This document shows, piece after piece, positions 57,300 through 64,000 of a stretch of 64,000 nt of DNA. The translations under genes were made by a program, and so were the position numbers. Position 1 is the first letter of the stretch; each line of letters begins with the position of its first letter. Source of the DNA: Escherichia coli phage KS_S14; the sequence record LC788706.1, one strand, 5' to 3'. The notes under the pieces were generated by a model. The model did no database searches and was not told the DNA's origin. It saw nothing but the letters and a program-made list of their open reading frames with translations.

Positions 57300-57742
57300 T
57301 GGAAGAGAATATTTTAGATGTTTTGCGTAGAGCTTTGCAGGATTCTAAGTTTAATGGTTCTGATAAAGAAGTCGCTAAAAGCTATCAGACCATAATCGGG
57401 GATCTTCAGCGTATTAATAAAGATTTCATCACTTCTGAACAATTTGTGTCTTATCTCAAAGCTCAACTAAAAAGCATTAACCAGATGAAAGCTAAACTTC
57501 ATGGTCAAGATCTTGATAGTTATAGCTTGCAGTCCGCTCAGTATGAATACATTCTAAATAAGTGGTTGCAGGAGTATCTGCCTCCTCAGTTATCTGATAC
57601 TGAGATTCGTAAATACTTTGCAGAATTAGTTAAGCTAAACCCTGGAATTACAAAAGGTATGCTAATGAAAGCGATTAAGGAAGAATTTCCTGGGCGTTAT
57701 GATGGTGGTACTGCTGCTCAGATTGCTGGCGAATTTAATTAA
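57299..57742 (+). CDS. GatB/YqeY-domain protein
   Basis: 147 aa; C-terminal KGMLMKAIKEEFPGRYDGGTAAQIAGEF typical of YqeY family. Confidence 0.55.
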   Translation: MEENILDVLRRALQDSKFNGSDKEVAKSYQTIIGDLQRINKDFITSEQFVSYLKAQLKSINQMKAKLHGQDLDSYSLQSAQYEYILNKWLQEYLPPQLSDTEIRKYFAELVKLNPGITKGMLMKAIKEEFPGRYDGGTAAQIAGEFN

Positions 57743-57785
57743 AAATTTATTTGCTAAATGCTTATAAATTCTGTATAATATATTC
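57740..57785 (+). promoter_or_regulatory. T5-type early promoter driving tRNA/structured-RNA region
   Basis: AAAAATTTATTTGCTA with TTGCTA (57751-56), 17 bp, TATAAT (57774-79). Confidence 0.65.
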
Positions 57786-58017
57786 ATAAATTAGAGAACA
57801 GCGAGCCGATTACGCTGAACTTGTCTTAATGTAAGATGCGTCAAGCACTAAGATTCGTTGAATAGAGTCGGTGGGTTAGTTGTAAAACTAGTACACAGGG
57901 GGCGGCAATCCCGGTTAGTGGCTAGAACGTGTAAAATGAGGCGTCTGAAACCTCTCCCCTAAACTCTTCTCTAATTTATAAATAGTGGGGTGTGGAAATC
58001 ACTTATGTAGTAACACT

Positions 58018-58089
58018 GCCGTCCTAGTATAATTGGTATTATCAAGCCGTAACTGGTGGAAGATGTAGGTTCGAATCCTACGGTCGGTA
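58018..58089 (+). tRNA. tRNA-like element, possibly degenerate tRNA
   Basis: Perfect T-arm GTAGG-TTCGAAT-CCTAC and acceptor pairing with one U-U mismatch, but no convincing anticodon stem and no encoded CCA. Confidence 0.3.
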
Positions 58090-58591
58090 AGAACTGGATA
58101 ACTGATGCTTTTAACGTAAAAGCTTCCGAGGTTAGTTGCGCACTGCCTAAACCACGCGGTAGTTGGTTCCAGACTAACCAACCAGTCTGCTGAATAGTTT
58201 TATTACGATTTAACTATGTCCAGGCTAAAGAAGAACTTTAGAAGGTATTCTAGGATAGTGAAGTTCTTTCTCCATATCGGAGTAGTTTTTCAAGCTATCC
58301 ACAAAGTGGGAAATGCTGACATGAGAGATGTCACTAATGGTGCACAATAGCACAGGTAATTCGCGATAACTCCTGTTGAGTAGCAGCAAAAGGCGGGAAG
58401 TCATGACCCCAAGCCTAACCGAGTCCTCAATATACCGCAGGACATAACCACTAAGTCACCCTGACTTAAACTGGAAAATAATAGACGTTACTGTATTTTG
58501 TCTTGAAATACTTAATGAGCGAGACTTATGACTCTCCCGGTATCGTCTGTATTTTTAAGAGCTTTTATAAGAGTTCTTAAAAATGCCTAAA

Positions 58592-58666
58592 CGGGGTGTA
58601 GTCTAAGGGAGAGGCAGGAGTCTTCTAAATTCCTTTATGCAGGTTCGAATCCTGTCACCTCGGCCA
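58592..58666 (+). tRNA. tRNA-Arg (anticodon TCT)
   Basis: Hand fold: acceptor CGGGGTG/CACCTCG, anticodon stem GGAGT/ATTCC, loop CTTCTAA, T-arm GCAGG-TTCGAAT-CCTGT, encoded CCA. Confidence 0.6.
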
Positions 58667-59648: not shown

Positions 59649-59672
59649 TATCCACATGTAACACCTGAAGTA

Positions 59673-59708
59673 AGCCCTGCGTTTCCTGGAGAGCGCAGGG
59701 CTTTTCTG
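59673..59708 (+). terminator. rho-independent terminator after SPFH gene
   Basis: AGCCCTGCG...CGCAGGGCT then TTTTCTG. Confidence 0.7.
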
Positions 59709-59724
59709 TACTTAAGATAAAAGA

Positions 59725-59755
59725 AAAGCCCCTAAGTCTTTCGACTAGGGGCTTT
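59725..59755 (-). terminator. terminator for convergent minus-strand Q-rich gene
   Basis: GCCCCTA(A)GTC...GACTAGGGGC; minus strand followed by TTTTCTTTT. Confidence 0.6.
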
Positions 59756-61663: not shown

Positions 61664-62182
61664 ATGAATGTTGATGAACTAACAGAACATCTCTTATCTA
61701 GAGGGTTTGATACAGATAAATATCACTGCTGGCTAAGCCCAGAAGGATGGCTAACAGTCCCATTGTATGACTTCTCTGGGATGTTGAGAGGCTATCAGAC
61801 TTATAATCCTTCTGCTCCAAAAGGTCATGGTAAACGCCCCTTTGAAGCTAGATATTTTACTTATTCTACTACACAGTGTGTAGGGGGACTAGAAACTCTC
61901 AATGGAGACGAAAAAGTAGTATTGATTGCTGAATCTGTATTTAAGGCAGTTGCGTTACATAACGCTGGTTATCCAGCCCTGGCAATGTTGGGTTCTTCCC
62001 CTGGAAAAGCGTTGTTAAAGCAATTGAAATTACTACCTTTTAAATTGGTAGCTGTTGGGGATAATGATCCTGCTGGTGAAAAATTTGCTAGACAATTAAA
62101 TGGATTTGTTTCTCCTGTAGATGTGGATGAGATGTCTACCGAAAACTTGAAAAATTTTCTTGCTATGAAGCTAAATTTCTAA
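61664..62182 (+). CDS. Toprim-like small protein
   Basis: ATG 61664 with RBS gagagga; IAESVF (Glu) and VGDNDPAG (DxD) Toprim-like. Confidence 0.45.
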   Translation: MNVDELTEHLLSRGFDTDKYHCWLSPEGWLTVPLYDFSGMLRGYQTYNPSAPKGHGKRPFEARYFTYSTTQCVGGLETLNGDEKVVLIAESVFKAVALHNAGYPALAMLGSSPGKALLKQLKLLPFKLVAVGDNDPAGEKFARQLNGFVSPVDVDEMSTENLKNFLAMKLNF

Positions 62183-62195
62183 TATAATATATTTA
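62155..62195 (+). promoter_or_regulatory. T5-type promoter immediately upstream of tRNA-Ser
   Basis: TTGCTA (62160-65), 18 bp, TATAAT (62184-89); lies in 3' end of preceding ORF. Confidence 0.55.
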
Positions 62196-62202
62196 TAAAT
62201 TC

Positions 62203-62291
62203 GGAAGAATAGCATAACGGTATTGCAGCAGATTGCTAATCTGTCGGTTTGAAATATAGCCTTGTGGGTTCGATTCCCACTTCTTCCGCCA
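62203..62291 (+). tRNA. tRNA-Ser (anticodon GCT), long variable arm
   Basis: Acceptor GGAAGAA/TTCTTCC, 3-bp D-stem, anticodon stem GCAGA/TCTGT, loop TTGCTAA, long variable arm, T-arm GTGGG-TTCGATT-CCCAC, encoded CCA. Confidence 0.7.
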
Positions 62292-62297
62292 AATTCT

Positions 62298-62375
62298 GGT
62301 TCTCAAGCTCATATGGTATGAGCACCCGGCTCATAACCGGAAGGTACGTAGGTTCGAATCCTCGGGGAGCCACCA
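62298..62375 (+). tRNA. tRNA with CAT anticodon (Met or Ile2-type), weak T-stem
   Basis: Acceptor GGTTCTC/GGGAGCC with G-U pairs, D-stem GCTC/GAGC, anticodon loop CTCATAA, TTCGAAT T-loop but only 3 T-stem pairs; encoded CCA. Confidence 0.45.
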
Positions 62376-62395
62376 ACTTAATTAGGGGATTACAA

Positions 62396-62584
62396 GTGGA
62401 ATTATACATAGTTTATGTTGTGTTTATTCAAGATAGAGAATACCCTGATGAATATAAAAAAGGATATAGGTTAGCCAGAGCTACTTCTGAAGCCCAAGCT
62501 ATGGATAAAGTGGCAGATTATATGCTTACAGTAGAAAACGTACACTACATCGACTACCTTGAAGCCTCAAAAGTAATTGACTAA
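62396..62584 (+). CDS. hypothetical small protein
   Basis: 62-aa ORF from GTG 62396 after RBS aggggat; the longer ORF-track ORF from 62249 overlaps tRNA genes. Confidence 0.3.
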   Translation: MELYIVYVVFIQDREYPDEYKKGYRLARATSEAQAMDKVADYMLTVENVHYIDYLEASKVID

Positions 62585-62591
62585 ACTACAC

Positions 62592-62668
62592 GGGGGTGTA
62601 ATCGAATTGGCATAGGTACTGGACTTAAAATTCAGGTTTTGTGGGTTCGAATCCCACCACCCCTACCA
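62592..62668 (+). tRNA. tRNA with TAA anticodon (Leu-like) and short variable loop
   Basis: Acceptor GGGGGTG/CACCCCT, anticodon stem CTGGA/TTCAG, loop CTTAAAA, T-arm GTGGG-TTCGAAT-CCCAC, encoded CCA; short variable loop is atypical for Leu. Confidence 0.5.
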
Positions 62669-62843
62669 AATTAAGGAAATAAGATGTATAGACACCCACC
62701 TCCGCCAACACGTCGTTCTAGAGAAGTTATCCTCATGGAATTGACTAAAAACTTCAAGGCAACTCTTGAGGATAGAGATTTAGGCACGGATGAAGACATT
62801 GATTTTATTTGTAGACTATTAAAGATGAAACTGGAGAAACAAC

Positions 62844-63050
62844 ATGGCTAATCCTGAAATTACCATGCAACGATTCATGGCTAAAGGCATGATAGCTGAG
62901 GCAGGCATTGAACAAGAAGTAAAAAGTTATTACGAACAGATTAAGGGTATTGTAGACTCGGCTAAAAACACCGGAGAAAAAGAACATGGTGCGGCAATTA
63001 TGGCTATAACTCTTATTAGTCTAGACTTGGCCGAAGAATCTGGAGTTTAG
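62844..63050 (+). CDS. hypothetical protein
   Basis: 68-aa ORF, RBS ggaga. Confidence 0.4.
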   Translation: MANPEITMQRFMAKGMIAEAGIEQEVKSYYEQIKGIVDSAKNTGEKEHGAAIMAITLISLDLAEESGV

Positions 63051-63069
63051 CTCCTCCAAACAGAATTTT

Positions 63070-63115
63070 TAAAAATGTACTTGCCTTTTGCTTTAAATTT
63101 CTGATATAATAGTTG
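63070..63115 (+). promoter_or_regulatory. T5-type early promoter
   Basis: TTGCCT (63081-86), 18 bp, TATAAT (63105-10). Confidence 0.6.
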
Positions 63116-63140
63116 TATAAATTGATGAAGGAGTTAACGA

Positions 63141-63416
63141 ATGCAAAATCGTGTTATAGCAACTGGTATTGAAAGTGCAATCTGCAAATCCTGGGAAGAC
63201 TGGGAAGGTGAGATTGAGTGGCTCTATCTCTATAACGTAGAGCTTTTACCAGAAGTTAAAGCTGAATGTATTGAAGCTGGCATGGCTCCAGATGCAAAAG
63301 CTGATATTGATATTTTAATGTCTGAACTTAAAGGTCGTGTAGTTACTGTTAGTACTGAGGGTGAAGAAGTTTTTGAACTTCCGTTCTCCTTAACTGTCAC
63401 TCCTAAGTTCGACTAA
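63141..63416 (+). CDS. hypothetical acidic protein
   Basis: 91-aa ORF, RBS gaaggag, T5-type promoter upstream. Confidence 0.45.
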   Translation: MQNRVIATGIESAICKSWEDWEGEIEWLYLYNVELLPEVKAECIEAGMAPDAKADIDILMSELKGRVVTVSTEGEEVFELPFSLTVTPKFD

Positions 63417-63424
63417 CTAATACA

Positions 63425-63463
63425 GCACTGAGCAAGTTCTTCAAAATTTGACTTGCTCAGTGC
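63425..63463 (+). terminator. inverted-repeat hairpin overlapping promoter -35
   Basis: 12-bp arms GCACTGAGCAAG / CTTGCTCAGTGC. Confidence 0.45.
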
Positions 63464-63485
63464 CTTAAAACTTGGTATAATAGTT
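63440..63485 (+). promoter_or_regulatory. T5-type promoter upstream of tRNA-Tyr/Glu cluster
   Basis: TTGCTC (63453-58), 17 bp, TATAAT (63476-81); -35 lies in 3' arm of an inverted repeat. Confidence 0.55.
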
Positions 63486-63544
63486 ATCTAATTCGGAAAC
63501 ATATTTAAAAGTGTTTAAACTAGTATTTGAATACTTTTAAATAT

Positions 63545-63635
63545 GTTGGATTAGTATCGTAGAGGTAGCGAAGCAGACTGTAAATCTGCCGACTCGGAAG
63601 GGTCTCGGGTGGTTCGACTCCATCATCCAACACCA
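63545..63635 (+). tRNA. tRNA-Tyr (anticodon GTA), long variable arm
   Basis: Acceptor GTTGGAT/ATCCAAC, anticodon stem GCAGA/TCTGC, loop CTGTAAA, long variable arm, T-arm GGTGG-TTCGACT-CCATC, encoded CCA. Confidence 0.7.
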
Positions 63636-63642
63636 AATTTAA

Positions 63643-63719
63643 GTCCTGTTAGACAAACTGGTAAAGTCACTACCCTTTCAAGGTAGGGTTTGCGGGTTCG
63701 ATCCCCGCACAGGACCCCA
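63643..63719 (+). tRNA. tRNA-Glu (anticodon TTC)
   Basis: Acceptor GTCCTGT/ACAGGAC, anticodon stem CTACC/GGTAG, loop CTTTCAA, T-arm GCGGG-TTCGATC-CCCGC, encoded CCA. Confidence 0.7.
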
Positions 63720-63728
63720 ATTAATAAT

Positions 63729-63796
63729 TGGGGTACGCATAGGTTGCAAATGGGCCTCCAAAACCCATGAAAAGGTTTCGAATACCTTTACCCCTG
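63729..63796 (+). tRNA. tRNA-like element with 9-nt anticodon-like loop, no CCA
   Basis: Perfect T-arm AAGGT-TTCGAAT-ACCTT, acceptor-like GGGGTA/TACCCC, 5-bp stem ATGGG/CCCAT enclosing 9-nt loop CCTCCAAAA, minimal D-arm. Confidence 0.3.
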
Positions 63797-63805
63797 CTAA
63801 AATTT

Positions 63806-63880
63806 GCACCTTTAGCTGAGATGGATTAGCGCTTGCCTGAAGAGCTTGAGAGGTTCGTTCGATACGAACAGGGTGCACCA
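63806..63880 (+). tRNA. tRNA, anticodon ambiguous (GAA or CTG)
   Basis: Acceptor GCACCTT/AGGGTGC, D-stem GCTG/TAGC, T-arm GTTCG-TTCGATA-CGAAC, encoded CCA; anticodon stem has two alternative registers. Confidence 0.5.
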
Positions 63881-63892
63881 AATTGAAGGAGA

Positions 63893-64000
63893 TGCTGATG
63901 CATCCTGAAAACTTCTTTATTTACTGCGCGGATAAGTCGCTGAAACGTAGAATTAACAAAGTCTATCATTATCGTGTTAGTCAACAGCCTTATGTATACG
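63893..64000 (+). CDS. hypothetical protein, 5' partial at window edge
   Basis: ATG after RBS aaggag, open to window end. Confidence 0.3.

Follow-up and report, generated by a model that had tools for sequence, protein, structure and literature searches.

The transfer RNAs (tRNAs) of phage T5 have been known since 1970, and the sequencing and annotation of their genes date back decades. The GenBank records of T5 (AY734508) and BF23 (NC_042564), which were annotated by hand by the T5 tRNA group and contain approximately 23–24 tRNA genes, were used here as the reference annotation for a 64,000-nucleotide (nt) stretch of Escherichia coli phage KS_S14 (sequence record LC788706.1; this whole stretch is referred to as the window). 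An initial annotation of the window, made from its letters alone, had flagged positions 62203-63880 as a tRNA cluster with encoded 3' CCA ends and non-canonical members. The order of features in the T5 and BF23 records is identical to that in the window: promoter P16-17, the stable RNA rnaX, tRNA-Arg, a band-7 protein, a nick site, terminator ter1 and three minus-strand open reading frames (ORFs) come first, followed by P15a, a Toprim protein, P15b, tRNA-Ser3, tRNA-Ile2(CAU), small trn ORFs, P15c, P14a, and tRNA-Tyr, Glu, Trp and Phe. The promoters annotated in T5 align with the window at 96–100% identity. From the shared feature order and the promoter matches, the flagged stretch can be identified as the leftmost part of the classical tRNA gene region of T5. 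For each of its features, a counterpart has already been named in T5 or BF23; the cluster is already known.

In a database comparison, 514 records matched the 6-kb region around the cluster. This region aligns over its full length, at 95–97% identity, with many T5-like phages, including JLBYU40, oldekolle, FFH1 and SP15, which belong to Demerecviridae, Markadamsvirinae; the window itself is assigned to a T5-like phage (Tequintavirus) that is 96–97% identical to JLBYU40, FFH1 and SP15. Collinearity and high identity, which extend to the promoters and stable RNAs, place the locus in the Markadamsvirinae tRNA gene region. The window ends at position 64000, short of the remaining part of the T5-type tRNA region; the complete region in mar004NP2 contains approximately 25 tRNA genes. 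Compared with T5 and BF23, the Arg and Ser genes of the window are identical and the CAU tRNA, Phe and Trp genes are 97–99% identical. The differences lie in an HNH endonuclease gene, hegA, which T5 and BF23 carry where the window has a 62-amino-acid (aa) ORF and tRNA-Leu(UAA), in tRNA-Tyr, for which the window has the SP15/FFH1 allele and not that of T5, and in the CUA 3' end of tRNA-Trp and C73 of tRNA-Glu in the window. Very probably, we are dealing with a T5-type cluster whose tRNAs function in translation, supplementing or substituting for those of the host, and in which the odd forms are inherited variants of the phage family. What remains beyond the known is modest, namely an under-annotated compact, putative tRNA-Trp, a naturally armless tRNA-Leu and a marked allelic mosaicism at each tRNA slot.

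With default settings, ARAGORN detected six tRNA genes in the whole window, all on the plus strand (Arg-tct, Ser-gct, Leu-taa, Tyr-gta, Glu-ttc and Phe-gaa), and the Rfam tRNA model (RF00005; gathering threshold, 29 bits) backed all six at 32.6–60.5 bits. Two additional sequences exceeded the threshold, namely a CAT-anticodon tRNA at 62298-62372 (40.3 bits), which ARAGORN also called at a 90% threshold, and a tRNA-like module at 58018-58089 (35.5 bits). All seven genes for Arg, Ser, CAU, Leu, Tyr, Glu and Phe, whose scores lie within the above range, end with N73-CCA in the DNA, followed by an A/U-rich trailer that is mostly AAUU. The tRNA list and encoded 3' CCA of the initial annotation are thus supported by ARAGORN, Rfam and the reading of the DNA for these seven genes, and a tRNA that had been left there as ambiguous proved to be a real gene, now identified by ARAGORN as tRNA-Phe(GAA) at 63806-63880. 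An encoded CCA is also found in all 21 BF23 tRNAs listed by ARAGORN, and every E. coli tRNA gene encodes CCA. Because of the encoded CCA and the A/U-rich trailer (CCA-AAUU), the transcripts would fit the E. coli processing pathway. Folding-energy z-scores were weak for most of the cluster tRNAs and, because this was true even of accepted ones, do not discriminate among them. Low-scoring Rfam matches (plastid untranslated-region motifs, small nucleolar RNAs, leaders and a permuted tmRNA) were rejected as reverse-strand or partial echoes of tRNAs or as chance matches.

The most unusual member of the cluster is located at 63729-63799 on the plus strand. This 71-nt element aligns base for base with tRNAW, the 71-nt tRNA-Trp of T5 and BF23, and we assigned it as the ortholog, a compact tRNA-Trp(CCA) (hereafter, the short Trp), on the basis of the T5/BF23 annotation, the alignment, Rfam, ARAGORN and the minimum free energy (MFE) fold. 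Infernal aligned it over the entire model, with 3 nt missing from the D stem and positions 1·72 and 31·39 mismatched. The MFE fold of 63729-63796 is a cloverleaf with a 9-nt anticodon loop (-20.3 kcal/mol), as had been described in the initial annotation. However, Infernal and ARAGORN read a 7-nt loop, CUCCAAA, with the anticodon CCA and closed by a C31·A39 mismatch. ARAGORN produced this reading in its mitochondrial mode for the window copy and at the 90% threshold for an Epseptimavirus variant; because the mitochondrial mode also yields spurious genes on the same 131 nt, its call lends the short Trp little weight. Further oddities are a U1·U72 mismatch as the first pair of the acceptor stem, a single nucleotide connecting the acceptor and D stems, and a D arm that consists of a 3-bp stem and a 5-nt loop (UAGGU), which retains GG. 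The T arm is canonical, and G73, U33, A37 and the T loop are intact. The 3' end reads CUA in the window (CTA in the DNA), and to this extent the earlier description of an element with no CCA was correct; however, this is a C75-to-T change private to the window, because all of the 17 other copies that were fetched read GCCA.

Compared with E. coli trpT, the short Trp shares the loop CUCCAAA, G73, U72, the pairs from G2-C71 to G5-C68 and the UUCGA T loop, whereas its body is five nt shorter. Its D arm has 3 bp and a 5-nt loop in place of 4 bp and 8 nt, U1·U72 and C31·A39 stand where trpT has A1-U72 and U31-A39, and a single connector nucleotide occupies the place where U8 and N9 normally stand.

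The short-Trp allele is present in approximately 116 records, none of which matches the window across C75 (the best is identical at 83 of 84 positions). Across these records, which represent two genera, the 71 nt of the short Trp are 96–99% conserved, even though the alleles of the adjacent Tyr and Glu genes differ considerably. Among six haplotypes, we identified three one-sided stem substitutions, all of which keep or improve pairing: G3-C70 is replaced by G·U in T5, an A-U pair at the base of the anticodon helix is replaced by G·U in Epseptimaviruses, and U1 is replaced by G in mar003J3, where it forms a G·U pair with U72 (the other five haplotypes have U1·U72). A nearby unpaired A is changed to U in a further variant. 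In BF23 (L004:6472-6542; L023), the anticodon CCA is replaced by ACA both in the older record of the tRNA region and in the complete genome of 2023, and this may represent inactivation or a changed reading. An exact-pattern scan of IMG/VR for the short-Trp anticodon arm yielded five loci, all of them T5/BF23-like and none contributing new diversity. The approximately 117 records that match the short allele do not include Proteus PM135, Providencia PR1 or Klebsiella AmPh_EK80, and no further scan of these three phages was made; in Providencia PR1, the sole one of these distant Demerecviridae members with annotated tRNAs, the arrangement differs.

Approximately 279 related records contain a different, 77-nt tRNA-Trp in the same slot, which is called by default ARAGORN and has U·U mismatches of its own. 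T5, BF23 and mar004NP2 have near-complete tRNA sets, in which no candidate for tRNA-Trp other than the short element is present. The 2023 paper on the BF23 genome reported no tRNA-Trp because it relied on ARAGORN, and the short gene is unannotated in most of the approximately 116 genomes that carry it. The tRNA repertoires of T5-like phages have therefore been under-counted.

From its sequence features, the short element is more likely to be a working compact tRNA-Trp than a pseudogene. It carries most of the identity set for E. coli TrpRS listed in PMC9976931, from which this set was taken. The anticodon C34 C35 A36 is present within a loop identical to that of trpT (ACA in BF23), as are the discriminator G73 and G-C pairs at 2-71, 3-70 and beyond. 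The first pair, A1-U72, is not present, and the 3' CCA needed for charging is replaced by CUA in the window but is found in the 17 other copies. The short Trp would accordingly be expected to be charged and used in translation; for the window copy, host exonucleases may trim the 3' end and the host CCA-adding enzyme may repair it, failing which this copy would be impaired.

Several observations weigh against a working tRNA. With a relaxed E-value, Rfam scored 63729-63796 at 23.1 bits, below the 29-bit threshold, and default ARAGORN made no call for the element in the window. Its folding energy is not better than that of shuffled sequence (z = -1.19). No double-sided covariation was found among the six haplotypes, although the copies resemble one another too closely for this test to be informative, and the literature searched contained no expression or charging data for the short Trp. 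In addition, essential positions have been altered twice within a small number of haplotypes (ACA in BF23 and CUA in the window), which could reflect relaxed constraint.

These points lend themselves to the best-surviving rival explanation, in which 63729-63799 is a decaying pseudogene, a former tRNA-Trp that has lost part of the D arm and is unused, and the CUA of the window and the ACA of BF23 (in both of its records) are products of drift. Besides the low Rfam score and the missing ARAGORN call, the cut-down D arm, the mismatches at 1·72 and 31·39 in nearly all copies, and the different full-length tRNA-Trp that occupies the slot in approximately 279 related phages are all in line with decay. 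We nevertheless consider it possible but doubtful. A decaying gene would not readily account for the conservation of the 71 nt over two genera beside such different Tyr and Glu alleles, for the retention of CCA in 17 copies of the 18-copy set, or for the fact that none of the three stem substitutions disrupts pairing. Its T loop, D-loop GG, U33 and A37 are preserved, as is almost all of the TrpRS identity set; the gene lies 6–9 nt from its neighbours inside a co-transcribed block, and it is the sole Trp candidate in phages whose tRNA sets are otherwise near-complete. A working compact tRNA-Trp is therefore the reading that we prefer.

The second unusual member is tRNA-Leu(UAA) at 62592-62668 on the plus strand (ARAGORN; Rfam, 57.4 bits), which we aligned with E. 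coli leuZ and BF23 tRNA-Leu1. It is 77 nt in length and has a class I shape, with A73, an encoded CCA, a 3-bp D stem and an 11-nt D loop (GAAUUGGCAUA). The short variable loop that had been noticed in this tRNA measures 5 nt in the ARAGORN structure; the gene thus lacks the long variable arm of class II tRNAs, which the Ser and Tyr tRNAs of the cluster possess. According to PMC9976931, animal mitochondria are the sole exception among organisms and organelles in having a tRNA-Leu without the long arm, yet E. coli LeuRS depends on A73 and on D-loop/T-loop tertiary elements, and variants devoid of the long arm stay active. In the alignment, the phage gene shares with leuZ the LeuRS determinants A73, A14, A15/U48 (A15-U48), G18G19 and A20a, as well as the 3-bp D stem and 11-nt D loop, and it lacks only the 10-nt arm. 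It would thus be expected to be charged and used in translation. T5-like phages therefore naturally carry a tRNA-Leu without the arm described as universal outside animal mitochondria. The same architecture is found in the 77-nt tRNA-Leu1(UAG) of T5 and BF23, and a note in the BF23 GenBank record states that this tRNA becomes an efficient amber suppressor. The armless tRNA-Leu(UAA) is at least 95% identical in approximately 324 phage records and is routinely annotated, whereas some Epseptimaviruses have an 86-nt tRNA-Leu(UAA) with a long arm at the same place. A literature search for descriptions of an armless phage tRNA-Leu returned no readable account.

The slot that follows the CAU tRNA (62376-62668 in the window; compare L003:4827-5510 and L012:768-850) is occupied by hegA, by the 62-aa ORF with the armless tRNA-Leu or by the 86-nt long-arm tRNA-Leu. 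The 62-aa ORF (62396-62584, plus strand, GTG start), which appears in the ORF list and is annotated in FFH1, SP15 and mar004NP2, travels with tRNA-Leu(UAA). The Tyr, Glu, Trp and Phe slots each have two to five quite different alleles. Such alternative contents, as seen in the compared sequences, suggest cassette exchange within the tRNA region. Because each slot offers several quite different alleles, the region constitutes a natural library for testing tRNA features against nucleases.

The CAU-anticodon tRNA (62298-62375, plus strand, encoded CCA) is backed by its Rfam score, the ARAGORN call at the 90% threshold and the MFE fold. The ARAGORN drawing contains three Watson-Crick pairs in the T stem, as in the initial annotation, but the MFE fold (z, -2.33) is a cloverleaf with a 5-bp T stem around one bulged U. 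The latter structure is the better one: among the three alleles found in relatives, four pairs show compensatory double changes on the bulged structure, including the outermost T-stem pair, which changes from C-G to G-C in the Epseptimavirus allele, and no compensatory changes were seen in any of the slid-register controls. A mismatch at 27·43 is kept in all three alleles. The T5 and BF23 annotators labelled this gene tRNA-Ile2, whereas automatic pipelines label it tRNA-Met. As expected for Ile2, the CAU anticodon coexists with separate initiator and elongator tRNA-Met genes (tRNAI2, tRNAfM and tRNAM are annotated in T5 and BF23), and mar004NP2 has three cat tRNAs, namely two annotated ones and the CAU ortholog, which its annotation omits. 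The frequency of AUA in the ORFs of the window (13.5 per 1,000 codons) also fits Ile2, although the acceptor stem (U4-A69, C5-G68) leaves the choice between Ile2 and Met undecided.

The remaining tRNAs all lie on the plus strand and have an encoded CCA. tRNA-Arg(UCU), which reads AGA, is located at 58592-58666 (ARAGORN; Rfam, 49.3 bits) and is identical to tRNAR of T5 and BF23; tRNA-Ser(GCU), a class II tRNA with a long variable arm and G73, is located at 62203-62291 (ARAGORN; Rfam, 60.5 bits) and is identical to T5 tRNAS3. The class II tRNA-Tyr(GUA) at 63545-63635 (ARAGORN) is 100% identical to that of SP15, and a published Northern probe for tRNA-Tyr matches 63589-63614 exactly. tRNA-Glu(UUC) at 63643-63719 (ARAGORN; Rfam, 60.3 bits) has a C as its discriminator (63716) in the window and in mar004NP2, in contrast to the G of the other alleles (T5, BF23, FFH1 and SP15-type). 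tRNA-Phe(GAA), with G37 (ARAGORN; Rfam, 42.4 bits), contains U·U mismatches at 28·42 and 29·41 of the anticodon stem. The 97% identical T5 allele has the same mismatches, whereas the stem is fully paired in the JLBYU43/atrejo allele, and T5 tRNA-Phe is cited in PMC9976931 as a substrate of E. coli PheRS (Kholod 1997).

How such a cluster would serve the phage can be outlined as follows. Early sigma-70 promoters (the orthologs of P16-17, P15a, P15b, P15c and P14a) would transcribe runs of tRNAs mixed with very small ORFs, and host RNase P and 3' processing enzymes would cut the transcripts into ordinary translating tRNAs that top up or replace those of the host. The odd structures (armless Leu, bulged CAU, U·U-containing Phe and shrunken Trp) would be inherited family-wide variants that keep their synthetase identity elements. 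One purpose may be the supply of tRNAs for codons that are heavily used by an AT-rich phage and poorly read by E. coli, namely UUA, AGA and probably AUA; the other may be to let translation continue when host defences destroy host tRNAs. The G+C content of the phage is 39%, and the ORFs of the window contain 22.9 UUA and 11.1 AGA per 1,000 codons, UUA being the commonest Leu codon (27%) and AGA accounting for 25% of Arg codons. Because UUA and AGA are rare in E. coli, codon supply would also be served. Both codon supply and defence evasion are real benefits, and a limit of our explanation is that they are inseparable by sequence alone.

The idea that tRNAs of this kind counter host defences is already in print for retron Eco7 and PARIS (2024–2025). 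Expressed from a strong promoter, the SP15/T5 tRNA-Tyr rescues T5-like phages from retron Eco7, which depletes the tRNA-Tyr of the host through its PtuAB effector. The anticodon and the stems of the phage tRNA must be intact for rescue, which the authors explain by supplementation driven by a strong promoter and not by a decoy (PMC11555353). In the same study (Azam et al.), the promoter that precedes SP15 tRNA-Tyr showed strong activity when measured. Our phage has the identical tRNA-Tyr, preceded by an ortholog of T5 P14a, although the 115 nt upstream of the gene (63430-63544) are slightly different from those of SP15. T5 tRNA-Lys, tRNA-Thr and tRNA-Asn likewise defeat the PARIS nuclease AriB via substitutions in the anticodon stem (PMC11464382, PMC12409363). 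Evasion of tRNA-targeting nucleases, which the initial annotation had proposed, is thus correct for the phage family and already published; its extension specifically to the non-canonical members, as evaders or decoys, is not supported, and the missing CCA is a private point change and not a design.

That the odd tRNAs are decoys or sponges, bound or cut by host anticodon nucleases and thereby shielding host tRNAs, seems improbable to us. Their altered anticodon stems (U·U in Phe, C·A in Trp and 27·43 in the CAU tRNA) do lie where AriB-type nucleases cut (positions 40/41), and the many alternative alleles per slot would fit an arms race. However, Tyr is the one member that was tested, and a change of its anticodon abolished rescue, from which the authors concluded that the function in protein synthesis is needed (PMC11555353); this dependence on the anticodon disfavours the decoy idea. 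Resistant T5 tRNA-Lys, moreover, replaces the host tRNA rather than absorbing the nuclease. The synthetase identity elements kept in Leu and Trp would also be unneeded in a pure decoy. The earlier suggestion that the element at 63729, by virtue of its expanded loop, acts as a frameshift (quadruplet-reading) suppressor is in our view extremely unlikely, because the nine unpaired bases of the thermodynamic fold comprise the seven of the E. coli tRNA-Trp loop plus positions 31 and 39, one on each side, so that no base is added next to the anticodon, Infernal and ARAGORN align the loop as 7 nt, natural +1 suppressors differ in having 8-nt loops with an inserted base, and no need for programmed frameshifting was identified.

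Among the neighbouring features, the P16-17 ortholog (57740-57797, plus strand; 98% identical to the T5 promoter) drives the rnaX and tRNA-Arg transcript, and the P15b ortholog (62140-62214, plus strand; 100% identical) lies directly upstream of tRNA-Ser; a promoter consensus scan found TTGCTA-17-TATAAT in both, at 57751-57779 and 62160-62188, respectively. Three small plus-strand ORFs of 55, 68 and 91 aa at 62684-63416 (ORF list, T5/BF23 annotation) are orthologs of T5 trn2.3, trn2.4 and trn2.5, and the P15c ortholog (63062-63136; 100% identical to T5) is located within this stretch. The P14a ortholog (63431-63504, plus strand; 98.6% identical to T5) lies upstream of the Tyr-Glu-Trp-Phe block. 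The leader between P14a and tRNA-Tyr (63500-63545, plus strand) is filled, as read from the sequence, by a perfect 13-bp A/T-rich hairpin, CATATTTAAAAGT ... ACTTTTAAATATG, the last base of which is nucleotide 1 of tRNA-Tyr, and which may be a processing or stability element. The Toprim ('primase-like') protein gene at 61664-62182 (plus strand), annotated as such in T5 and relatives, is 97% identical to SP15 E0157_075. In Azam et al. 2024 (PMC11555353), an 'ORF75' rescues phages from retrons Eco2 and Eco7 by a mechanism that was not established; the Toprim ORF is probably this ORF75, with the correspondence of number and locus tag being inferred. Between the band-7 gene and the convergent minus-strand ORFs, at 59670-59755, the window has orthologs of two further T5 features, the 'major DNA single-chain interruption' site (around GGAGAGCGCAGGG) and ter1, a bidirectional terminator.

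The rnaX ortholog (57962-58591, plus strand; 92–94% identical to T5 rnaX) corresponds to a stable RNA of about 0.7–0.8 kb in T5 and BF23, to which no function has been assigned; it abuts tRNA-Arg, into which it runs straight. The tRNA-like module at 58018-58089 lies inside it and has good acceptor, D and T arms, but its anticodon arm is unalignable and it has no CCA. ARAGORN calls the BF23 copy of this module 'tRNA-Ser(act)', and the window copy has U·U where BF23 has U-A.

Outside phages, tRNAs with reduced D arms exist in animal mitochondria, mt-tRNA-Ser(UCN) being an example. As a lead only, the short Trp resembles animal mitochondrial tRNAs in the single nucleotide connecting the acceptor and D stems, the small D loop, the extended anticodon helix and the short variable region, and the permissive metazoan-mitochondrial mode of ARAGORN is the default-threshold setting that calls the window copy. 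We tentatively raise the possibility, which we regard as rather unlikely, that the compact Trp, and perhaps the armless Leu as well, is fully functional with the normal E. coli synthetases, EF-Tu and ribosome and has been kept because its shape escapes host tRNA-targeting nucleases. If this is true, the compact Trp would be a natural tRNA of a bacterial system with a mitochondria-like reduced D arm that has been overlooked by most phage annotations. Unlike animal mitochondrial tRNAs, however, the short Trp has a fully canonical T loop and D-loop GG, and it belongs to a bacterial host with standard translation factors.

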